Part shown: one piece after another, positions 1 to 11,859 of the stretch
How positions within the stretch are numbered: position 1 is the stretch's first letter
Layout: each line of letters opens with the position of its first letter
Virus genome (UHGV): UHGV-1565572
Reading direction: 5' to 3' (one strand)
DNA from: a virus
Length of the DNA: 11,859 nt
Program-made: the position numbers and the translations under genes
Notes under the pieces: model-generated
Seen by the model: only the letters and a program-made list of their open reading frames with translations
Databases searched by the model: none
Told to the model about the DNA's origin: nothing

Positions 1-355
1 GGTCGATAGCCTGACGGATATCACCGCGATCAATCATCGGCAAAGCGCCACGCTCCTTAATCTGCTGCAATGCAACAGCATCCTGGCTTTTAGGAGAGAA
101 GTCTTTCAGGCCAAGCTGCTTACGGTAGGCGTCCCACCAACGGGAAAGAAGCTGGTAACGTCCGGCAGCTGTTGATTTGAGTTTGGGGTTTAGCGTGACA
201 AGTTTGCGAGGGTGATCTGAGTAATCAGTGAATAGCTCTCCGCCAACAATGACGTCATAACCATGATTTCTGGTTTTCTGACGTCCGTTATCAGTTCCCT
301 CTGACCACGCCAGCATATCGAGGAACGCCTTACGTTGATTATTGATTTCCACCAT
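1..355 (-). CDS. R: Endolysin R (lambda R-type lytic transglycosylase); only the N-terminal ~118 codons are in the window, the 3' end runs off the window edge
   Basis: Reverse translation from the ATG at 353-355 reads [24 protein letters not shown]..., which matches recalled lambda R. The start overlaps the end of S as in lambda. Confidence 0.9.
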
Positions 356-662
356 CTTCTACTCCGGCTTTTTTAGCAGCGAAGCGTTTGATAAGCGAAC
401 CAATCGAGTCAGTACCGATGTAGCCGATGAACACGCTCGTTATATAAGCGAGATTGCTACTTAGTCCGGCGAAGTCGAGAAGGTCACGAATGAACCAGGC
501 GATAATGGCGCACATCGTTGCGTCGATTACTGTTTTTGTAAACGCACCGCCATTATATCTGCCGCGAAGGTACGCCATTGCAAACGCAAGGATTGCCCCG
601 ATGCCTTGTTCCTTTGCCGCGAGAATGGCGGCTAACAGGTCATGTTTTTCTGGCATCTTCAT
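339..662 (-). CDS. S: Holin S (class I holin) with the dual-start motif Met1-Lys2-Met3
   Basis: The 107-aa [25 protein letters not shown]... is essentially recalled lambda S. ATG codons sit at 660-662 and 654-656, and the upstream sequence is GGGGGTAAGAC-ATGAAGATG as in lambda. Confidence 0.95.
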
Positions 663-1083
663 GTCTTACCCCCAATAAGGGGATTTGCTCTATTTAATTA
701 GGAATAAGGTCGATTACTGATAGAACAAATCCAGGCTACTGTGTTTAGTAATCAGATTTGTTCGTGACCGATATGCACGGGCAAAACGGCAGGAGGTTGT
801 TAGCGCAACTTCTTGCCACCCGCTTTCACGAAGGTCATGTGTAGAAGGCCGCAGCGTAACTATCACTGATGAGTTCAGGATAGCCAGTGGCTACGGCTCA
901 GTTTGGGTTGTGCTGTTGCTGGGCGGCGATGACGCCTGTACGCATTTGGTGATCCGGTTCTGCTTCCGGCATTCGCTTAATTCAGCACAAAAGGAAGAGC
1001 GCTAGTCTACCTCTATCGATTAACGGGCTTGTGGGGCAGTATCGCCGATTCACCTAACGCTCTTCCCTTTGTGATTGTAACGC

Positions 1084-1112
1084 AAAAAGCCCCGAGCTAT
1101 TAACTCAGGGCT
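1084..1112 (-). terminator. Intrinsic terminator in the late leader (tR'-like)
   Basis: On the minus strand a 9-bp stem (AGCCCUGAG / CUCGGGGCU, one G-U pair) with a 7-nt loop is followed by UUUUU. It lies about 55 nt downstream of the pR' -10. Confidence 0.6.
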
Positions 1113-1147
1113 TTATTTAACGAGTGCATTTATCCATCGTTGGGTCA

Positions 1148-1176
1148 AATTTACCCAACTTTATTCAAAAAGTCAA
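1148..1176 (-). promoter_or_regulatory. Late promoter pR' with adjacent Q-utilisation region
   Basis: On the minus strand TTGACT (1171-1176), a 17-bp spacer and TAAATT (1148-1153), followed by TGACCCAACGATGG, which matches the recalled lambda pR' early transcribed region. It lies directly downstream of Q. Confidence 0.8.
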
Positions 1177-1218
1177 TATCATGCCGTTAATATGTTGCCA
1201 TCCGTGGCAATCATGCTG

Positions 1219-1842
1219 CTAACGTGTGACCGCATTCAAAATGTTGTCTGCGATTGACTCTTCTTTGTGGCATTGCACCACCAGAGCGTCATACAGAGGC
1301 TTAACAGTGCGTGACCAGGTGGGTTGAGTAAGGTTTGGGATTAGCATCGTCACAGCGCGATATGCGGCGCTTGCTGGCATTCTTGAATAGCCGACACCTT
1401 TGCATCTTCCGCACTCTTTCTCAACAACTCTCCCCCACTGCTCCGTTTTGGCAATATCAACCGCCCGACCTGTACCGTGGCAATCTCTGCATCTTGCGCC
1501 CGGCGTCGCGGCACTACGGCAATAATCCGCATAAGCGAATGTTGCGAGCACTTGCAGTACCTTTGCCTTAGTATTTCCTTCAAGCTTTGCCACACCACGG
1601 TATTTCCCCGATACCTTGTGTGCAAATTGCATCAGATAGTTGATAGCCTTTTGTTTGTCGTTCTGGCTGAGTTCATGCTTACCGCAGAATGCAGCCATAC
1701 CGAATCCGGCTTGTGATTGCGCCATCCCCATAGCAGCCATCACATCAGTACCGGAAAGAGAGTCAGAAGCCGTGGCCCGTGGTGAGTCACTCATCATCGG
1801 GCTTTTTGGCGAATGAAATTTAGCTACGCTTTCGAGTCTCAT
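1219..1842 (-). CDS. Q: Late-gene antiterminator Q
   Basis: 207 aa, [28 protein letters not shown]...; near-identical to recalled lambda Q in length and sequence. The start forms an ATGA overlap with the upstream phosphatase stop. Confidence 0.95.
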
Positions 1843-2504
1843 GCGCCTTCTCCCTGTACCTGAATCAATGTGAGGTTTCCGCAGAACACTGCGCCGGTAT
1901 CGATATACATCTGGTTGGCAAATTTGAGTGGTTTCACTGCTGGCGTATGACCAAAGATGAACGTGTCCGCGCCTTTGATTTCTTTCACGATCCCGTCTTG
2001 TGAGTTGCTGATTCGTTCGCGGTTCCAGATTACCTGCTGATGATCAACTGGCTTTCCAAACTCGTATTCGTCACAAGGATAATCGGCGTGGCAGATGACA
2101 TATTTTTTATCTTTACTCACCAGTTCGATGATTAACGGAAGTTCATCTGCTTTATGGGCAAGAGCTTTAGCCAGAATTTCTTTGTCGTAATCGAGATTAA
2201 AGAACCAGCCACCGCCATTAAGCAGCCAGTGATTGACGTTTCCGCGCTCTGATAAGCCATCAATCATCATTTGCTCATGGTTTCCACGTACAGCTCTGAA
2301 CCAGGGGAATGTGATTAATTCCAGGCATTCAACGTTCTCTGTACCGCGATCGACCAAATCGCCAACCGAGATAAGAAGGTCTTTTTTGGTGTCGAATCCT
2401 ATCGTCTCCAGTTTTTTCATCAGGTTCGTGTAGCATCCGTGCAGATCGCCAACTACCCAAATATTTCGGTATTTGCTGCCATCAATTTTTTCGTAATAGC
2501 GCAT
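1839..2504 (-). CDS. ninI: Ser/Thr protein phosphatase (lambda PPase / NinI, calcineurin-like metallophosphatase)
   Basis: 221 aa from the ATG at 2502-2504 ([24 protein letters not shown]...), with the GDLHG, GDLVDRG and GNHE metallophosphatase motifs. A GGAG RBS precedes this ATG; the longer 246-aa ORF in the track is an upstream extension. Confidence 0.9.
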
Positions 2505-2688
2505 CTCTTTCACTCCATCCGCGATGAACCATGAGAACGTCGTTGACGATGGCGTGCATTTTCCCGTCTTTATCATCAACGTATTTTCTGACCGTACCGC
2601 GACTACATTTCAGTCTGCGTGCTACTTCTGTCTGGTTTCCGTATGCTTCAACGAGCATGTCTGGAATGGTTTTTACTGAGAACGTCAT
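2482..2688 (-). CDS. ninH: NinH
   Basis: 68 aa, [36 protein letters not shown]...; matches recalled lambda NinH. ATGA overlap with the ninG stop. Confidence 0.85.
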
Positions 2689-3296
2689 GCGGCCTCACTT
2701 CTGCTATTTCGCAGGTCTTTGAGTTTCTGTTGGTACTCTGCCTTGATCGCCTTGCACTCTTCGACAGTCCAGCGATGGCGGCTATGGTTTGATTCGATTT
2801 CGTCTACTGCTTCCTGCCCGATGCGGTTAATCAGTTCGACGCGATACGGAACGAGATTTCCGCTTTTGTGCTGGTTGCACACCACGCATTGCTTGTGAAT
2901 ATTGCGTTCATCAAATCGGAGTTGAGGTGCCGCAGCAGTTGTCCGGTAATGTCCGGCATCCCACTGAGCAGACGTGAGCGTTCCGCACGAGATACATGGT
3001 AAGTCGCGGTCTCTTTCTCTGATGAAGGCGTTTACAGCTTGTTGGGCTTGTTTAATCCAGTAACTGCGGGGCTTTAAGGCGAGTTTTCGAATCTTCAGTT
3101 TATCTTTCTGTTTCTGCTCCTCTCGTCGTCGTTTCTTCTCTGCTGCTTTTTCCGCTTTTTCGCGTTCTTTGCTTCGTCGTTCGAGTGCTATCTTTGTTCC
3201 ACACTCTGGAGAGCACCACCACTGATTAGCGAATGCAGGGTGAAACCATTCCCGACATTCATCGTTTTTACATCGTCTTCGCGCTGGTTTAGCCAT
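2685..3296 (-). CDS. ninG: NinG / Rap recombination endonuclease
   Basis: 203 aa with cysteine clusters (CKNDEC...CSPEC, CISC, CVVC) and a basic KR-rich linker; matches recalled lambda NinG. Confidence 0.9.
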
Positions 3297-3465
3297 CGTC
3301 TTCTTCCTCGTACATTGAGCTATTCGGATCGCTCATCAGTTCTGCGCAACAGTGCTCACATACGTGAACTTCCAGCACATGCAGCTTCTGACCGCAGTTA
3401 GCGCACGTTAAAGCTCGCTCGACGCTTTCTTTCTGGTATTGAAGGGATTGGGATGGGCTAAGCAT
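3289..3465 (-). CDS. ninF: NinF (58 aa; below the ORF-track length cutoff)
   Basis: Manual minus-strand translation from the ATG at 3463-3465: [58 protein letters not shown]. Its stop overlaps the ninG start. Confidence 0.8.
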
Positions 3466-3811
3466 TATTGGCGTCCTGCATCATGAGAAAGACAATCATG
3501 GCAGCGCGGAGTGGGTTTTCATCTTGAGTCATATGATATGGGGTACTATCACTGCCAACTTTTCTATGCGCTGCCTTCCATAATCCATTTTCTGGCGCAG
3601 GAATAATGCCAATTCTGTTCTCTACGATAATAGGCTCTGCATCTTCAGGATTATTGCAGTAGTCGTACCATCGATAATTACCATTTGATTCATTGCCGAC
3701 AGACCGTCCATCTGCGTTGTGCGGATAACCTAATGGTTTTGCCCCAACTATCGCTTTAAATACTCGCTTGTTAATTTCAAAATCACTTAACTGTGAATAA
3801 TCCATTGTCAT
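3458..3811 (-). CDS. Conserved nin-region protein of unknown function, NinX-like by position (between ninE and ninF as in P22)
   Basis: 117 aa from the ATG at 3809-3811 ([35 protein letters not shown]...). ATGA overlap with the ninE stop, and a GAGGA upstream. The family assignment is from memory. Confidence 0.6.
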
Positions 3812-3984
3812 TTCCTCGCACGATGTCTTAGCCACCGGATATCCCACAGGTGAGCCGTGTAGTTGAAGGTTTTTACGTCAGATTCTTTTGGGATTGGCTT
3901 GCGTTTATTTCTGGAGCGTTTCGTTGGAAGGTATTTGCAGTTTTCGCAGATTATGTCGGTGATACTTCGTCGCTGTCGTCTCAT
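3808..3984 (-). CDS. ninE: NinE
   Basis: 58 aa from the ATG at 3982-3984 ([52 protein letters not shown]...), with an AGGAGGG RBS; matches recalled lambda NinE. The longer 88-aa track ORF is an upstream extension. Confidence 0.85.
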
Positions 3985-4506
3985 GCCGCCCTCCTGACGC
4001 CCTGCCCGATCGCCATCAATGCCGCTTTGGATACGGTAGTAAACATCCGTCGAGGACTGATGAACGGTCGCCAAATCAGCAGCATGGAGCCTTTGCTGTT
4101 TCCCTTCTTCTCCAACCCTGTCGATGGTTCGATAAAATTAATCCGTCCATCAGTGATAATGCGAACTTCGTCGACACTCTCCAGCCTTGCTGAACCATCC
4201 GACTGACATATCCTCTGGCACAAGCATAACTACCGTCTGTCGCTGTTGTATGCACTGCTCAGCGGCTTTTTCCACCCACGGCCTGATATTGCTGTACGGT
4301 GGGTTATTCCAGATTGCACCGTGGCTTATCCACTCAGAATTTAGCGCGTCGTCGGCCTCAGTTAACCAGTGAGCGCACAGAGCATTTTTGTCGCTCGCTG
4401 CCGAATCCAGCCAGAATCCAAACTCAATATCCAGTGCATCAAAAAGCCAAAGCGGCGTTTGCCAGCAGTCCTTGTCGTGTGCTGGCGTATTTGATTTGAT
4501 AGTCAT
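3981..4506 (-). pseudogene. Phage Dam-like DNA N6-adenine methyltransferase, split by a +1 frameshift near 4150-4223
   Basis: The N-terminal frame (4506 to a stop at 4150) reads MTIKSNTPAHDKDCWQTPLWLFDALD...WNNPPYS...MLVPEDMSVGWFSKAGECRRSSHYH*. The C-terminal frame (about 4223 to a stop at 3981) reads ...[44 protein letters not shown]...GQGVRRAA*. The N-terminal start is ATGA-coupled to ninB and the C-terminal stop is ATGA-coupled to ninE. The NPPY motif marks an amino-methyltransferase. Confidence 0.7.
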
Positions 4507-4943
4507 GCAGCCCGATCTCCCCATCGCGCTTTCCATTCGAGAGCCAGTCGTGCTTCGTCTGACCACTTAACGCCACGCTCTGTACCGAATGCCTGTATAA
4601 GCTCTAATAGCTCCGCAAATTCGTTTACACGCATCCTGCTGGTTGACTGGCCTATTACCACAAAGCCATTCCCGGCAAGGTTAGGAACAACATCCTGCTG
4701 CTTTAATGCTGCGGTAAACACACACTTCCAGCTTTCTGCATCCAGCCAGCGACCATGCCATTCAACCTGACGAGAGACGTCACCAAGGCAAGCCCAAAGC
4801 TTTCGATTCTGGTCTAAGCTGCGGTTGCGTTCCTGAATGGTTACTACGATTGGTTTGGTTGGGTCTGGAAGAATTTGCTGTATCGCGTGAATAGCGTTTT
4901 GCTGATGAATGGGGCTTCTTAGTTCAAACGTTAGTTTCCTCAT
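4503..4943 (-). CDS. ninB: NinB (Orf recombination mediator family)
   Basis: 146 aa, MRKLTFELRSPIHQQNAIHAIQQILPDPTKPIVVTIQERNRSLDQNRKLWA...; matches recalled lambda NinB in length and sequence. Confidence 0.9.
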   Translation of the reverse strand: MRKLTFELRSPIHQQNAIHAIQQILPDPTKPIVVTIQERNRSLDQNRKLWACLGDVSRQVEWHGRWLDAESWKCVFTAALKQQDVVPNLAGNGFVVIGQSTSRMRVNEFAELLELIQAFGTERGVKWSDEARLALEWKARWGDRAA

Positions 4944-5178
4944 GGCTCACCTTCTGCACGCATGGATTAATTAACGCCAAAATAGCTTCTGGTTTCTCAA
5001 TAACATCGAACCGCTCACCACTTGCCATTCTTACAATCGTAAATCCGGCATCAAATAGGGTTTCGATGTTGTCAGAGTTAACGTACAAGGGCTCATATGC
5101 ACTTCTGGTGCTTTCTATCGCGCTTGTGCTTGGTGGCTGATAGATGCTGCATCGCATGGTTAATTTGATAAATGACAT
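4924..5178 (-). CDS. Hypothetical protein (84 aa) immediately upstream of ninB
   Basis: ATG at 5176-5178 preceded by an AGGAG RBS; its stop overlaps the ninB start. I do not recognise the family. Confidence 0.5.
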   Translation of the reverse strand: MSFIKLTMRCSIYQPPSTSAIESTRSAYEPLYVNSDNIETLFDAGFTIVRMASGERFDVIEKPEAILALINPCVQKVSHEETNV

Positions 5179-5435
5179 ATACTCACTCCTTCACTTTGAT
5201 TCCAGCGGCGCGGATGGCGTCAGCGCAATAATCGATAGCGCAGTTGTGTCCTTTGTCGAAATCATCCTCAGCCATCACTTTGTCATCGAGTTTTATCTCG
5301 ATAGCTGCGCGAGACTTAACTCATGACTGCCAGGCAATCATCTTGATGGCCTGAACGTGAAGTTCTTCGCTGCTGTTAATAGACTCGAACTCTTCACCAA
5401 ACCACTCCAAAAACTGCTTTCTTGATTCGTCCATA

Positions 5436-5651
5436 TCAATCCCCGTTAGTCGTTTCACTCACGAATCTGACAAAACCAGCCATGTTAATTTGCATGAGTT
5501 TTTTCAACACTTTGTCTCGCCGGCTACGTTTTGGTTTTGGCCTGTGGTTGAATCTTTCACAAACTGGAAGGTTTGATGATTTCCAGTACCTATTACGCCT
5601 TGCTCCATCTTCCGCCATATCGGCATGAATAAGGTCTGCGAGTGTGCTCAT
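5436..5651 (-). CDS. Hypothetical basic protein (71 aa from the ATG)
   Basis: ATG at 5649-5651 with GGAGAGG five nt upstream; the track ORF starts two codons earlier at a GTG. It contains a basic stretch RPKPKRSRRDK. Function unknown. Confidence 0.45.
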   Translation of the reverse strand: MSTLADLIHADMAEDGARRNRYWKSSNLPVCERFNHRPKPKRSRRDKVLKKLMQINMAGFVRFVSETTNGD

Positions 5652-5665
5652 ATTCACCTCTCCAG

Positions 5666-5848
5666 TTACATTGGTTTTGTAATGTTGCTAGTCATCTTGC
5701 GAATAAAAAGATGCGTACGTAGCTTTGCTTCCCACATGTAAATCTCCTCAAGGCGAGATAAATCTACGAATACCGGACCTTTGTAATCTGGTCTTGATGC
5801 CCTTATGTATGAGCTAATAGTTTGTGCATCTTGCTCGTCAAGATTCAT
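5666..5848 (-). CDS. Hypothetical protein (60 aa) just downstream of the tR2-like terminator
   Basis: ATG at 5846-5848 preceded by GGGGGAGAGGG (MNLDEQDAQTISSYIRASRPDYKGPVFVDL...). The longer 128-aa track ORF would run through the terminator and into the helicase gene, so the short form is preferred. Confidence 0.5.
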   Translation of the reverse strand: MNLDEQDAQTISSYIRASRPDYKGPVFVDLSRLEEIYMWEAKLRTHLFIRKMTSNITKPM

Positions 5849-5864
5849 GAATTCCCTCTCCCCC

Positions 5865-5896
5865 AAATAAAAAGGCCTGCGATTACCAGCAGGCCT
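5865..5896 (-). terminator. Intrinsic terminator downstream of the helicase gene (tR2-like position)
   Basis: On the minus strand a perfect 8-bp GC-rich stem (AGGCCUGC / GCAGGCCU) with an 8-nt loop is followed by UUUUAUUU. It sits between the replication genes and the nin region, where lambda has tR2. Confidence 0.65.
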
Positions 5897-5924
5897 GTTA
5901 TTAGCTCTGTGATGTAGATGGTCA

Positions 5925-7361
5925 TCAGAATCCTCCTTTCTTCTTGGACTGCGGTTCCTCGCGTTCACGGCGGCGCATTTCAGCAGACTGTTGGTCTGTG
6001 TCATAAATAGCGCCATTTGCCTGAATGCAATACACCGTGCCGGTATTGCCATGACGATTGAGACGAAGGATTAGTTCGGTTTCACCAGGCGGAACGCTGT
6101 CATCAAAAGCACCTTCACGATGGATCCCCACCCAATAATCGCAATCCTGTTCAATCTGCCCTGTATCGCGCGAGTCACTTGGTAATGGGCGTTTATTGGT
6201 TCGGCTTTCCAGTGCGCGGTTAAGCTGCGTCAGAAGCACAACAACGCAATCAAGCTCTTTGGCAAGGTTCTTCAGTCCTTTGGTGATCATGCCGTAAGCA
6301 AGGTCGTTACGATCGGCTTTCTCAGCGGTCATTAGTGTCAGGTAATCGACCAGAATCATCCCAACACATCCTTTTTCTCGCTTGATTCGACGGCTTTCGC
6401 TGACGATTTGAGCCAGAGATAATCCCGGCGTGTCGTCGATGTAAAGCAGGTCGATTTCACTCAAGCGATTGGCTGTTTCGATCGCCCTGTTGAAGTCACC
6501 ATCGTAATCACCCTGATAGCCGTCATCAGCGTCATTTGTCGCCGGAAGGTAAAAAATATTCGGGTTAACACCAGACTTCTGCCCTACCAGTTTTTCCAGT
6601 ATCTGATCACCTGGCATTTCAAGGCTGAACATCAGAGCGGGCTTTTTCTCATGCACTGCGCAGTTGATTGCCATCTGGCTGTATAGCGTCGTTTTCCCCA
6701 TCTTAGGGCGAGCGCCAATGACAAACAGAGAGCCTTTCACCAGGCCTTTCGGTGACAGCATCCTGTCCAGCGATGGGATCCCTGTGCTCATTCCTCGTTG
6801 TTCGCCTGACGGGTCAAATCGCTTCTCAAGGTCGCTAACCCAGTCTTCCATGACCTCACCAAATGAGCGAAGGCCGCGACGCGATCCGGTTTTTGCATGG
6901 TCTGTCAGTTGCGTGAAAATCGACTGAATAGCTTCGTACTTCTGCGTTGCAGTCATTCCGTTGCGGGAATAGAGCAATTCCGTCGCTTCAGTCATGCGGT
7001 TGATGGCGTAGCGTTCCATTGCGGTTTCGCAAACCTGCATTGCATAAGCAACGATGTTTGCTGCGCTTGGCGTGTTCTTTGCGATCTCAGCGATATAAGC
7101 AAAACCGCCAACAGACACCGTTAACGATTTACGCTCCAGTTCATCGAAAAGCGTCAGGCCATCTACTGGCTTTTGCTCACGGTGCATTCTGGTTATTTCT
7201 TCGAAAATGATTTTGTGTGGTCGGCTGTAAAATGAATCAGGCTTCAGCATCGCCAGGACTTTCTGGACGCGCTCACTGCTGTCATCATCCAGAAGCAATC
7301 CACCAATCACCGCCTGCTCTGCCTCGATGCTATGGGGCGGCGCATAAAAATTATCGGTCAT
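5925..7361 (-). CDS. Replicative DNA helicase, DnaB family (phage-encoded, P22 gene 12-like)
   Basis: 478 aa from the ATG at 7359-7361. Walker A GARPKMGKTT, a DnaB-like N-terminal domain (SIEAEQAVIGGLLLD) and a RecA-like C-terminal domain. Its start overlaps the 3' end of the O-like gene. Confidence 0.9.
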   Translation of the reverse strand: MTDNFYAPPHSIEAEQAVIGGLLLDDDSSERVQKVLAMLKPDSFYSRPHKIIFEEITRMHREQKPVDGLTLFDELERKSLTVSVGGFAYIAEIAKNTPSAANIVAYAMQVCETAMERYAINRMTEATELLYSRNGMTATQKYEAIQSIFTQLTDHAKTGSRRGLRSFGEVMEDWVSDLEKRFDPSGEQRGMSTGIPSLDRMLSPKGLVKGSLFVIGARPKMGKTTLYSQMAINCAVHEKKPALMFSLEMPGDQILEKLVGQKSGVNPNIFYLPATNDADDGYQGDYDGDFNRAIETANRLSEIDLLYIDDTPGLSLAQIVSESRRIKREKGCVGMILVDYLTLMTAEKADRNDLAYGMITKGLKNLAKELDCVVVLLTQLNRALESRTNKRPLPSDSRDTGQIEQDCDYWVGIHREGAFDDSVPPGETELILRLNRHGNTGTVYCIQANGAIYDTDQQSAEMRRREREEPQSKKKGGF

Positions 7362-8241
7362 CGTGTTCACCCTCACGAACTTTCAGGTAGGTATTATCGT
7401 TAAGCAGGAAATCAAATCCCTTTTTGTGCCAGACGGTTCCGCGTTGATGGTTTGGACGCTCTTCGAACATCCATCGGCAATTTTCGCCTACGTAGCTCAA
7501 ATAATTTCTCCAGTCCTGCATCGTGAACCCATGCCCGTCAAGCTGGCGGGTTATCACTCCGGCTTTGCGCCAGAACGTTCGGATCTGGTTTTTACGCTTG
7601 TCATTCAGTGCGCGGATTTTTGGCGCTTCAGGAAGGATTTCGTGGTAAGCATCGACAACATCCTGACAGCTAACGGAAGGTTTTTTCTTGTCAGACTTTT
7701 TGTCTGCTGTGGCACTCTCTAATACGTCAGTATTAGAGATATTATTTATATTATTGTTTATGGACAACCGTTGGACAGCCGTTGGACAATCTCCGCTGAG
7801 AGCCGCGCCATTACTGGTGTTTGCGTTGGACAACCGTTGGACAACCGTTGGACAATTTTTTGCCTGAAAATCGTCATATTTAACGATTGTAAACAGGCTA
7901 AATTTCTTCCCCATCGAGCAAATATTAAGCATCCCTTTCGACTCAAAAGTCCGTAATAAGCTCCGAACTTTGTTGTCGGGGATGAATGTTTCTCTGACCA
8001 GAGACGGGCGTCCAGTTATCATCTGACCGCGATCAACAGTTATCGGACCGATATCCGTATTGACGACAGTAGATTCGTGATTAGCCTTGAGGATTAAGTG
8101 AAGCCAAAGATGTACTGCCTGAGAGTCCTTATAGAGCCTGCTGTCCATAAACTGGCGGTGTATAGAGACATACCCCATACTGGATGCCTCCTGATGTTGT
8201 ACAGGGTTATGCCTGTAATCAGCTAACTTAACGACGCCCAT
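7351..8241 (-). CDS. Replication initiator protein (lambda O / P22 gp18-like) containing the origin repeats
   Basis: 296 aa from the ATG at 8239-8241 with an AGGAG RBS; an alternative ATG at 8176-8178 also has an RBS. The ori repeats encode a repetitive linker (CPTVVQRLSN...CPTAVQRLS) followed by an Asn/Ile-rich stretch. It sits directly upstream of the helicase. Confidence 0.8.
   Translation of the reverse strand: MGVVKLADYRHNPVQHQEASSMGYVSIHRQFMDSRLYKDSQAVHLWLHLILKANHESTVVNTDIGPITVDRGQMITGRPSLVRETFIPDNKVRSLLRTFESKGMLNICSMGKKFSLFTIVKYDDFQAKNCPTVVQRLSNANTSNGAALSGDCPTAVQRLSINNNINNISNTDVLESATADKKSDKKKPSVSCQDVVDAYHEILPEAPKIRALNDKRKNQIRTFWRKAGVITRQLDGHGFTMQDWRNYLSYVGENCRWMFEERPNHQRGTVWHKKGFDFLLNDNTYLKVREGEHDDR
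7715..7860. repeat. Origin of replication: iteron clusters plus an AT-rich region inside the initiator gene
   Basis: Six copies of CGTTGGACA, as two clusters of three tandem ~11-bp units (7762-7790 and 7824-7856). An AT-rich stretch (7720-7757) lies next to them, with a 9-bp palindrome CTCTAATAC-N4-GTATTAGAG at 7717-7738. Confidence 0.75.
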
Positions 8242-8389
8242 GTTTCACTCCTGCTTTGGCTAGTCTGTAAACACCAACAAGGCGTTCTGCGAACGCCCTG
8301 TTATTTGCTGCGGCTACCACTAATCCCTCAGGTGAATCAGGGTGTCGAATCTCTTCTTTTTCCTGGTATTTCTTACGACGTTTTGTCAT
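8228..8389 (-). CDS. Hypothetical small basic protein (53 aa) between cII and the initiator gene
   Basis: ATG at 8387-8389 with AGGAG six nt upstream: MTKRRKKYQEKEEIRHPDSPEGLVVAAANNRAFAERLVGVYRLAKAGVKHGRR. It overlaps the initiator start by 14 nt if that gene starts at 8241. It is below the ORF-track cutoff. Confidence 0.35.
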   Translation of the reverse strand: MTKRRKKYQEKEEIRHPDSPEGLVVAAANNRAFAERLVGVYRLAKAGVKHGRR

Positions 8390-8391
8390 AA

Positions 8392-8467
8392 TTACTCCTG
8401 TGGATTGATCCAGTCTTTCTACATCAGGCCTCGAAGAATTCGCCGTTCTTCGGGGCTTTTTCTTTTG
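8392..8467 (+). ncRNA. oop: OOP-like antisense RNA, antisense to the 3' end of cII
   Basis: A plus-strand intrinsic terminator (10-bp stem 8429-8438 / 8446-8455, then CTTTTTCTTTTG) overlaps the cII 3' end. A CATAAT -10-like hexamer at 8387-8392 lies about 70 nt upstream. Partial similarity to recalled lambda oop (GATCCAGT). The 5' end is approximate. Confidence 0.45.
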
Positions 8468-8702
8468 TCAGCATTCTGGCTACTTTCTTAGCCAGTTCCG
8501 CCAACTCCTCGTCTTCAACACCCCATTCAAGAACAGCCAGAAGCATTCCCATTTTTGGGATGAAGCTGTCTTTCCATCGCGAAATTTGCGATTCATTAAT
8601 CCCTAACGCGTCGGCAACCTTTCGCTGGCCACGTACAGCAATTCGATTCAGGATGTTGCTTGTAATTGCATTCGCTTTCTTGCGAGTACTTGTAAGTTGC
8701 AT
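8424..8702 (-). CDS. cII: cII-like transcriptional activator
   Basis: 92 aa from the ATG at 8700-8702. The core ESQISRWKDSFIPKMGMLLAVLEWGV aligns to recalled lambda cII (KSQISRWKRDWIPKFSMLLAVLEWGV); the N- and C-termini diverge. The track ORF is an upstream extension. Confidence 0.8.
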   Translation of the reverse strand: MQLTSTRKKANAITSNILNRIAVRGQRKVADALGINESQISRWKDSFIPKMGMLLAVLEWGVEDEELAELAKKVARMLTKEKAPKNGEFFEA

Positions 8703-8716
8703 ATGTAAGTATTTCC
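8680..8716 (+). promoter_or_regulatory. PRE (promoter for repressor establishment) with cII-binding repeats
   Basis: TTGC-N6-TTGT at 8680-8693, followed by ATATGTAAGTATTTCC, which matches the recalled lambda PRE -10 region. It is oriented antisense to cro and reads toward cI. Confidence 0.6.
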
Positions 8717-8719
8717 TTA

Positions 8720-8781
8720 GATAACAATTGATTGAATGTATGCAAATAAATGCATACACCATAGGTGTTGTTTAATTTGAT
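8720..8781 (-). terminator. tR1 region (Rho-dependent terminator in lambda) between nutR and cII
   Basis: Near-identical to the recalled lambda tR1 region, including the palindrome TGTATGCAAATAAATGCATACA (8738-8759). Rho dependence is inferred from lambda, not visible in the sequence. Confidence 0.5.
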
Positions 8782-8813
8782 GCCCTTTTTCAGGGCTGGG
8801 ATGTGTAAGAGCG
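8782..8813 (-). promoter_or_regulatory. nutR (boxA + boxB N-utilisation site)
   Basis: On the minus strand CGCTCTTAC (boxA, 8805-8813) and GCCCTGAAAAAGGGC (boxB hairpin, 8782-8796), 9 nt after the cro stop. Matches recalled lambda nutR. Confidence 0.85.
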
Positions 8814-8821
8814 GGAATGTC

Positions 8822-10174
<1,353 letters not shown>

Positions 10175-10223
10175 TCCCCACCTCAATCTCGATAACCAAA
10201 AACAAACTATTTTTCATTTAAAA

Positions 10224-10296
10224 ACAATGGAGTTTGTTTTTCACGCCCCTTTTTACAATATTTCTTGTTTACAACATACAATCTTTCTTGTAATTT
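10224..10296 (+). promoter_or_regulatory. Left operator OL3-OL2-OL1 (434 type) with PL
   Basis: 14-mers ACAATGGAGTTTGT (10224-10237), ACAATATTTCTTGT (10255-10268) and ACAATCTTTCTTGT (10278-10291). Candidate PL: -35 TTTACA (10268-10273), a 17-bp spacer, then -10 TAATTT (10291-10296), reading toward N. Confidence 0.8.
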
Positions 10297-10335
10297 TAAG
10301 CCATCAGCAGGACGCACTGACCACCATGAAGGTGA

Positions 10336-10366
10336 GGCTCTTAAAAATTAAGCCCTGAAGAAGGGC
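10336..10366 (+). promoter_or_regulatory. nutL (boxA + boxB)
   Basis: GGCTCTTAA-AAATTAA-GCCCTGAAGAAGGGC; the boxB hairpin is at 10352-10366. Matches recalled lambda nutL except for the first base of boxA. Confidence 0.85.
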
Positions 10367-10634
10367 AGCATTCAAAGCAGAAGGCTTTGGGGTGTGGTGA
10401 AGCCAGCTAGTCACTGGCAAGTGCTTACCTACTGTTGAGCGGTGAAGCGCTCCCAACGCTAGCAATAGCGTGGACGAGATGGGGAGCCGCGGGCGATAAG
10501 GCCGCCATAACGCGCACGTTGTCGCATGGAAAAATCGCTGGGGTGCCGGTTATACCCCTCCGAATGAGACTCAACAAGCTGGAGCTAGACTACCAGCCAC
10601 CACACCACCAAAGCTAACTGACAGGAGAATCCAG

Positions 10635-10967
10635 ATGGATGCACAAACACGCCGCCGCGAACGTCGCGCAGAGAAACAGGCTCAATGGAAAGCAGCAAAT
10701 CCCCTGTTGGTTGGGGTAAGCGCAAAACCAGTTAACCGCCCTATTCTCTCGCTGAATCGCAAACCGAAATCACGAGTAGAAAGCGCACTGAATCCGATAG
10801 ACCTTACGGTACTGGCTGAATACCACGAACAGATTGAAAGCAACCTGCAACGTATTGAGCGCAAGAATCAGCGCACATGGTACAGCAAGCCACGCAGTGA
10901 AATGGGTGTGACTTGTGTTGGTCGCCAGAAAATGAAATTAGGCAGCAAACCACTGTATGAGGGGTGA
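10635..10967 (+). CDS. N: Antitermination protein N (lambda N-like, with the arginine-rich boxB-binding N-terminus)
   Basis: 110 aa, MDAQTRRRERRAEKQAQWKAANPLLVGVSAKPVNRPILSLNRKPKSRVESALNPIDLTVLAEYH...; matches recalled lambda N over about 85 residues and diverges at the C-terminus. RBS ACAGGAGAA. Confidence 0.9.
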   Translation: MDAQTRRRERRAEKQAQWKAANPLLVGVSAKPVNRPILSLNRKPKSRVESALNPIDLTVLAEYHEQIESNLQRIERKNQRTWYSKPRSEMGVTCVGRQKMKLGSKPLYEG

Positions 10968-10970
10968 TAT

Positions 10971-11222
10971 ATGGAATTTCATGAAAGTGCGATTTATGAT
11001 TTTCGCGCTAACGCAAATTCAGTAAAACCACAGCCAATTGCAGTTCTTTTTAAAACAATGGGGGCGTGGGCTGTTTTATGCTTCGCCGCTGATGACACTG
11101 ACGCAAGAATGGCAATAGGCCAAGAGATGGAGATGGACCCGACAAACGATGAATTCATAATTTATGGCGCTCCATCTAATTACTTACTTGATACCTGCAA
11201 CATTTACAACAAGGCTGCCTGA
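10971..11222 (+). CDS. Hypothetical protein (83 aa), first gene after N in the PL operon
   Basis: ATG at 10971, 3 nt after the N stop, with a GAGGGG RBS. No recognisable motif. Confidence 0.5.
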   Translation: MEFHESAIYDFRANANSVKPQPIAVLFKTMGAWAVLCFAADDTDARMAIGQEMEMDPTNDEFIIYGAPSNYLLDTCNIYNKAA

Positions 11223-11241
11223 TGGTGGCCTTTATTTTTGG
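11211..11241 (+). terminator. Candidate intrinsic terminator (tL1-like position)
   Basis: A 9-bp stem AAGGCUGCC / GGUGGCCUU (two G-U pairs) with a 4-nt loop, followed by UAUUUUUGG. It overlaps the stop of the 83-aa gene. Confidence 0.4.
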
Positions 11242-11261
11242 CATAAACAACAGAGGCTAAC

Positions 11262-11558
11262 ATGGAATTTAAAGGTACTGAAGGTAAGTGGGAAATAATG
11301 ATGGATGGCGATGAGATTAAAATCATCCAGGCAGACTCACTTGAAAATGGCGCAGGCTGGCGTTCGTATATTGCAATCTGTGAGGAAGTTCAATGCATTG
11401 AAGATGCCAATCTAATAGCGGCAGCACCAGACCTTCTCGAAGCACTTCAGTTATTACTTAAGCAATCCAAAAATAGAACAACGACAACATATCCAGAATG
11501 GTATGGAGCTGTTAATAAAGGTCTTGCAGCAATCAGCAAGGCTCTGGTAGGTGAGTGA
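11262..11558 (+). CDS. Hypothetical protein (98 aa)
   Basis: ATG at 11262 with an AGAGG RBS (MEFKGTEGKWEIMMDGDEIKIIQADSLENGAGW...). Its stop overlaps the next start (TGATG). Function unknown. Confidence 0.5.
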   Translation: MEFKGTEGKWEIMMDGDEIKIIQADSLENGAGWRSYIAICEEVQCIEDANLIAAAPDLLEALQLLLKQSKNRTTTTYPEWYGAVNKGLAAISKALVGE

Positions 11559-11758
11559 TGTGCGAGTTTTATGAAGCAGATATCAAACGCCCAGAAATGG
11601 CAAGTGATGCGACATTACGTGATTACTTCGCGGCAAAGGCTATGCAAGCAATGATTAGCAATCCATCGATTATCGATAATGATTCTGATGGAGCTGTTAA
11701 TTATGCAGCAAGCGCTGCATATAAGTTTGCAGACGCAATGCTCAAAGCTCGCGAATAA
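11558..11758 (+). CDS. Hypothetical protein (66 aa), alanine-rich
   Basis: ATG at 11558-11560 overlapping the upstream stop (MCEFYEADIKRPEMASDATLRDYFAAKAMQAMISNPSI...). A 9-bp inverted repeat GTGTATTCA-N10-TGAATACAC follows at 11764-11791. Confidence 0.45.
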   Translation: MCEFYEADIKRPEMASDATLRDYFAAKAMQAMISNPSIIDNDSDGAVNYAASAAYKFADAMLKARE

Positions 11759-11859
11759 GCACTGTGTATTCATTCCAACGAGTGAATACACGGAGCAATG
11801 TCGCTCGTAACTAAACAGGAGCCGACTTGTTCTGATTATTGGAAATCTTCTTTGCCCTC

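Follow-up and report, generated by a model that had tools for sequence, protein, structure and literature searches.

The dam-type gene located between ninB and ninE of the prophage analysed here represents, with a probability of about 90%, a recently inactivated pseudogene of the small N6-adenine DNA methyltransferase of many lambdoid phages. The analysed stretch of 11,859 nucleotides (in the following the window) represents the early region, read leftwards, of a prophage resembling lambda. The reading frame of dam is broken into two fragments, which are arranged with their neighbours as follows:

Plus strand of the window: N and cI
Minus strand: cro, cII, an O-like gene, a gene for a DnaB-like helicase, ninB, dam, ninE, ninX, ninF, ninG, ninH, a phosphatase gene, Q and a holin gene
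4943-4503, minus: ninB, 146 aa, intact (PF05772 NinB, E 2.1e-54, profile positions 2-131 of 131)
4506-4503, minus: ATGA overlap formed by the ninB stop codon TGA (4505-4503) and the dam start codon ATG (4506-4504)
4506-4150, minus: dam 5′ fragment, ATG at 4506-4504, 118 codons, stop codon at 4152-4150
4305-4294, minus: NPPY catalytic motif (AAC CCA CCG TAC), residues 68-71
4182-4185, minus: site of a 2-bp deletion, GCTCTGG of the intact gene reduced to GCTGG
4184-3981, minus, +1 frame: dam 3′ fragment, residues 109-175 of the intact protein, stop codon at 3983-3981
3984-3981, minus: ATGA overlap formed by the dam 3′ stop codon (3983-3981) and the ninE start codon ATG (3984-3982)
3984-3808, minus: ninE, 58 aa, intact (PF05322, E 7e-44, profile positions 1-58 of 58)
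5 nt upstream of the ninE ATG, minus: Shine-Dalgarno sequence AGGAGG of ninE

This layout agrees with the preliminary description of the DNA, which had proposed a Dam-family methyltransferase with an NPPY motif, an N-terminal part of 118 codons starting at an ATGA overlap with ninB, a C-terminal part in the +1 frame ending at an ATGA overlap with ninE, and ninB and ninE themselves as the neighbours, both of which are intact. The first 108 codons of the 5′ fragment match the intact Dam and the final 10 (GECRRSSHYH) form an out-of-frame tail, while the +1 frame is open from position 4229, directly after a TAG at 4232-4230, with TTG at 4223 as its first start-like codon. All remaining genes of the window are full length. 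The site of dam between ninB and ninE, with overlapping start and stop codons, is that of the lambdoid nin-region dam module, and the same gene order with the same start/stop overlaps is also found in mEp332 and HK544. A scan for promoters and terminators in the part of the window from 3700 to 5000 revealed nothing that exceeded the expectation from shuffled sequences. Directly upstream of ninB, an ORF of 84 aa (4927-5178, minus strand) showed a sub-threshold match to the Pfam family FlbD (23.8 bits compared to a cutoff of 24.7), which is probably due to chance.

Judged by profile scores, the gene belongs to the family PF05869/TIGR01712, the phage N-6-adenine-methyltransferases. The 5′ fragment scored 143 bits on PF05869 (cutoff 28, E 8e-42, profile positions 1-106 of 169) and 175 bits on TIGR01712 (cutoff 97, positions 1-106 of 165), while the 3′ fragment scored 60 bits on PF05869 (E 3e-16, positions 107-167) and covered positions 106-165 of TIGR01712, i.e. 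the two fragments abut on both family profiles at approximately position 106/107. When the missing CT is put back, the repaired ORF reaches 264 bits on TIGR01712 (cutoff 97) and spans profile positions 1-165. The curated score cutoffs are thus exceeded and the (D/N)PPY motif is present, but instead of the one continuous ORF of about 165-185 aa typical for the family, which encodes the whole single domain, the window contains a frame that is interrupted at codon 108/109. It consequently holds a pseudogene of PF05869/TIGR01712 and no working member. Furthermore, we compared 44 full-length homologues chosen from the search, which extend down to 56% identity. Each of them is one continuous ORF of approximately 170-190 aa, which refutes the case, considered in the preliminary description, that the two ORFs are normally separate genes. 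The homologues share 44 invariant columns, among them N68, P69, P70 and Y71 of the NPPY motif; ten invariant columns (D113, E114, R116, F125, K139, G140, I145, W146, R147 and P148) are situated after the break.

The lesion itself could be located by comparison with close relatives. A megablast search with the 526-nt gene as query matched 244 phage records at ≥80% coverage and ≥95% identity, and every phage match listed spans 528 nt in its own record. In the alignment with the intact 528-nt genes of mEp332 and HK544, one 2-bp gap is found, the sequences being otherwise 99.4% identical; at this position the intact relatives read AAGGCTCTGGAGAG and the window reads AAGGCTGGAGAG, which is exactly the break site that had been suggested before from the letters alone. 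At codon 108-109, a (CT)2 repeat has been shortened by one CT, the exact position of the loss inside the repeat being ambiguous. Regarding the repair, the expected size of about 175 aa for the continuous protein proved correct, but its direction had been reversed in the preliminary description, because a 2-bp gain or a 1-bp loss is needed (526 nt to 528 or 525 nt) and not a 2-bp loss or a 1-bp gain. With the CT put back, an ORF of 175 aa is obtained, the protein product of which is identical to that of 13 intact copies in IMG/VR, and the repaired DNA differs by only 1 nt from five intact alleles. Hence, the copy shows no further decay and its inactivation should be recent, which makes a recent inactivation the best supported of the explanations put forward earlier.

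The deletion allele is rare. A 71-nt probe across the junction gave hits at 1,174 places, distributed over 1,038 of the 5,426 complete E. coli genomes, and none of these hits reached 99% identity. The allele was likewise not seen among the matches listed for the 244 phage records, and the exact (CT)1 junction gave 0 matches in the GTDB representative genomes, IMG/VR and the JGI metagenomes, compared to at least 120 matches of the intact (CT)2 junction in IMG/VR. However, two metagenome contigs of the ENA were found to code for exactly the 118-aa product of the window. One of them, scaffold_2304 of BRIT16-1_SAMN02334042, is 100% identical to positions 1079-10506 of the window, and the other, k119_118425 of ERZ27229748, carries the same deletion together with 5 SNPs elsewhere (7208, 7197, 7179, 4625 and 4624). 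The contigs come from different ENA analyses, the samples of which may or may not be independent. An assembly or sequencing error, in which the real phage would possess the intact 528-nt gene and the gap would be an artefact, had been offered as an alternative, and it is in line with the finding that the allele occurred in metagenome assemblies only, none of the isolate genomes and phage records that were searched containing it. Such an error is nevertheless unlikely, because the same deletion is present on two contigs that are not identical, and 8.2 kb of the window could be aligned to a finished E. coli chromosome with no gaps, all other genes of the window being full length. Moreover, the loss of 2 bp within CTCT is not typical of short-read errors. 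On the basis of the two non-identical contigs and the gapless alignment, the deletion is treated here as a real mutation, with a small residual chance of an artefact.

In other readings, the split gene would still be functional. A programmed +1 (or -2) ribosomal frameshift, or transcriptional slippage, would yield the full-length methylase at a controlled level, and it would be served by the fact that both frames are open across 4229-4150 and by two rare CGA codons after the lesion (TGT CGA CGA), which could pause ribosomes. However, the 80-nt overlap of the frames at 4229-4150 contains neither a slippery heptamer or homopolymer run nor a CUU-UGA of the prfB type preceded by a Shine-Dalgarno sequence, and the gene shows neither the slippery site and stimulator nor the conserved split of genes with programmed ribosomal frameshifts. 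The split is not conserved at all, given that the phage matches listed span 528 nt and that 93 of 99 IMG/VR copies and all 44 homologues are continuous; a putative recoding site that exists in one lineage and is one mutation away from an in-frame gene provides no programmed signal. We consider it very improbable that the gene is read in this way, and the slippage-controlled gene of the preliminary description is rejected. Even less credence is given to a phase-variable methylase, in which the CT repeat would be a contingency tract for on/off switching of the gene. The lesion is indeed the loss of one repeat unit, and two further single-base deletions exist in the same CTCT among relatives (see below), but the tract comprises only two units, and phase-variable methylases use much longer tracts. 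In addition, IMG/VR contains at least 120 matches to (CT)2 but none to (CT)1 and 0 to (CT)3, and a looser probe, AAGG-N{0,3}-GGAGAG, had no match in the GTDB representatives, IMG/VR or the JGI metagenomes. The long tract and the length polymorphism in close relatives that mark phase-variable methyltransferases were consequently not found. A split enzyme made from two separately translated pieces was also considered and rejected: the sole start-like codon of the 3′ frame, TTG at 4223, is not preceded by a good Shine-Dalgarno sequence and would add 14 junk residues, and no homologue is split in this manner.

The sequence around the lesion is affected in other genomes as well. Single-base losses convert GCTCTGG into GTCTGG on a Logan E. 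coli contig (SRR17680783) and into GCCTGG on 18 contigs of a prophage of the Salmonella arizonae type, while the homologous gene of E. coli CP027544.1 is interrupted by an IS629-like element with a 3-bp target duplication, AGG, directly before CTCT. The sites of lesions in or beside the heptamer are the following:

4182-4188: window
approximately 1835-1845: L126
approximately 1820-1830: L127
approximately 2820-2830 and 4125-4135: L125

Three independent small deletions and an IS629-type insertion within 7 nt could mean that GCTCTGG (codons 108-110) is a true mutational hot spot, for which the quasi-palindrome CTCT-GG-AGAG, scars left by IS excision, or selection acting repeatedly against the methylase in lysogens could be responsible. 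We regard a hot spot as rather improbable, because the list of truncated products was ranked by the match to the N-terminal query and clustered at 90% identity, by which the visible breakpoints are biased, because no microhomology suits a join by excision, and because none of the short alleles turned up in three large collections. Less probable again is that the 2-bp loss itself represents the scar of an imprecise excision of an IS629-type element that was once inserted at this site. The insertion at the adjacent AGG in CP027544.1 would fit to such an event, as would the microhomology-mediated end-joining activity of the IS-excision enhancer protein (PMC9943667). However, the flank that ends in AAGG and the downstream CTGGAG share no microhomology by which the observed join could be accounted for, and a simple slip in CTCT explains this join; furthermore, no IS sequence is left in the window, and nothing ties the phage lineage of the window to the lineage that carries the IS element.

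For the inactivated gene, we therefore prefer the loss of one unit of CTCT at codon 108-109, for which replication slippage would be the likeliest cause, judging from the CTCT context. Translation from the normal ATG would then run through 10 codons out of frame and end at the stop at 4150. The resulting product of 118 residues would keep the NPPY motif, but the final three beta-strands of the single-domain methyltransferase fold and its terminal helix would be lost. This picture is based on an AlphaFold (AF2) model of an intact homologue, which forms one domain (pLDDT 89, pTM 0.87) and in which the strands 114-119, 141-146 and 155-160 as well as the helix 161-174 are all located after the break. 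A match of this model to the methyltransferase domain of CAPAM/PCIF1 extends over approximately 178 columns (E 7e-5, TMq 0.58); a search by sequence for a solved structure of the family gave no significant match, the best hit (E 0.18) being at chance level. Since part of the core sheet would be missing, the 118-residue product should be inactive, as conservation and the model both suggest. The downstream 67 codons would remain as an untranslated relic, while translation of ninE could still begin at the ribosome-binding site of this gene. The translational coupling to the neighbours at both ends, which had been assumed earlier, can hence be upheld only in part: the ATGA overlaps exist at both ends, but ribosomes would stop at 4150, 166 nt before the start of ninE, so that the dam/ninE overlap would be a relic and no working coupling.

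The loss of dam should have cost the phage little. In lambda, the genes of the nin region can be dispensed with, and transcription modified by N is resistant to polarity. The N protein is encoded in the window, and with dam being part of an N-antiterminated pR operon and of a dispensable nin region, only minor consequences are expected. Other inactivating lesions were found in six of 99 full-length IMG/VR copies (approximately 6%; L066, L069, L116, L079, L006 and L023), the remaining 93 being one continuous ORF. Their kinds comprise a change from A5 to A6, with one additional A in GACAAAAATG, an insertion of 4 bp close to codon 17, and a nonsense mutation at codon 35. In the closest relative with a finished genome, E. 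coli XYEH3934 (L130, 3773-4362, compared with 3808-4943 of the window), ninB is directly followed by ninE, and both dam and ninX are missing, which characterizes dam as a mosaic module that is optional among phages of this group; some lambdoid phages possess no dam gene. Taken together, the broken copies in IMG/VR and the dam-less closest relative indicate that the loss of the gene is common and tolerated. As a separate observation, four homologue products (P0016, P0019, P0020 and P0022) leave the Dam sequence after residue 92 (...QRQTV), which corresponds to approximately position 4230 of the window, and run into four unrelated sequences. This shared divergence could result from prophage deletions, from mosaic joins formed at a single site or from chimeras of the assembly.

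The prophage lineage of the window probably no longer makes its own Dam-type methylase, while the Dam of the host would go on methylating GATC. The loss would be relevant only for predicting the methylation of the phage, or its resistance to restriction blocked by GATC methylation, in a Dam-less host. For a dispensable gene such an event is ordinary and of little importance, and the gene, its family and its location are all already known. For the annotation it follows that both ORFs should be joined as one frameshifted pseudogene and not be listed as two genes. Independently of this, GATC is about two-fold depleted over the whole window (1-11859), with 25 sites compared to 49.7 ± 6.5 in dinucleotide-preserving shuffles (n=200; 0 of 200 had fewer than 25 sites). 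The avoidance of GATC is already known in enterobacterial phages.

In comparison with known systems, the window resembles phasevarions and the prfB-type +1 frameshift in that a methylase gene changes its frame at a short repeat, but unlike them it has neither a long tract and a length polymorphism in the population nor a slippery site, a stimulator and a conserved split. The Dam of the host E. coli (PF02086) shares the reported GATC target and the N6-adenine chemistry (PMC6602927), but represents a different sequence family, and the AlphaFold model of the intact homologue matched E. coli Dam only weakly (E 0.04, approximately 113 columns). T1 Dam and HP1 Dam, which are probably small GATC-specific enzymes of the same family as the window Dam, are encoded in genomic contexts unlike that of the window. 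VT-2 and HP1 are listed among the phages with Dam-like genes in PMC7556043, which also cites the original paper on the cloning of M.EcoVT2Dam. M.EcoVT2Dam, the reference enzyme of the family and the product of dam of the Stx2 phage VT2-Sakai, is stated to target GATC (PMC6602927), and the window dam DNA is 98.1% identical to the VT2-Sakai gene. In Phi24B, the same 528-nt gene was found to be expressed by lysogen cultures (PMC3342100). The closest likeness is to M.EcoVT2Dam and the genes of mEp332, HK544, Sf6, Sf101 and Phi24B, which share with the window the locus, the 4-nt overlaps, the family and the NPPY motif, and whose DNA is 98-99.4% identical to the window dam. Compared to M.EcoVT2Dam and these near-identical lambdoid and P22-like copies, the copy of the window is 2 bp short, and the 175-aa enzyme can no longer be made from it.
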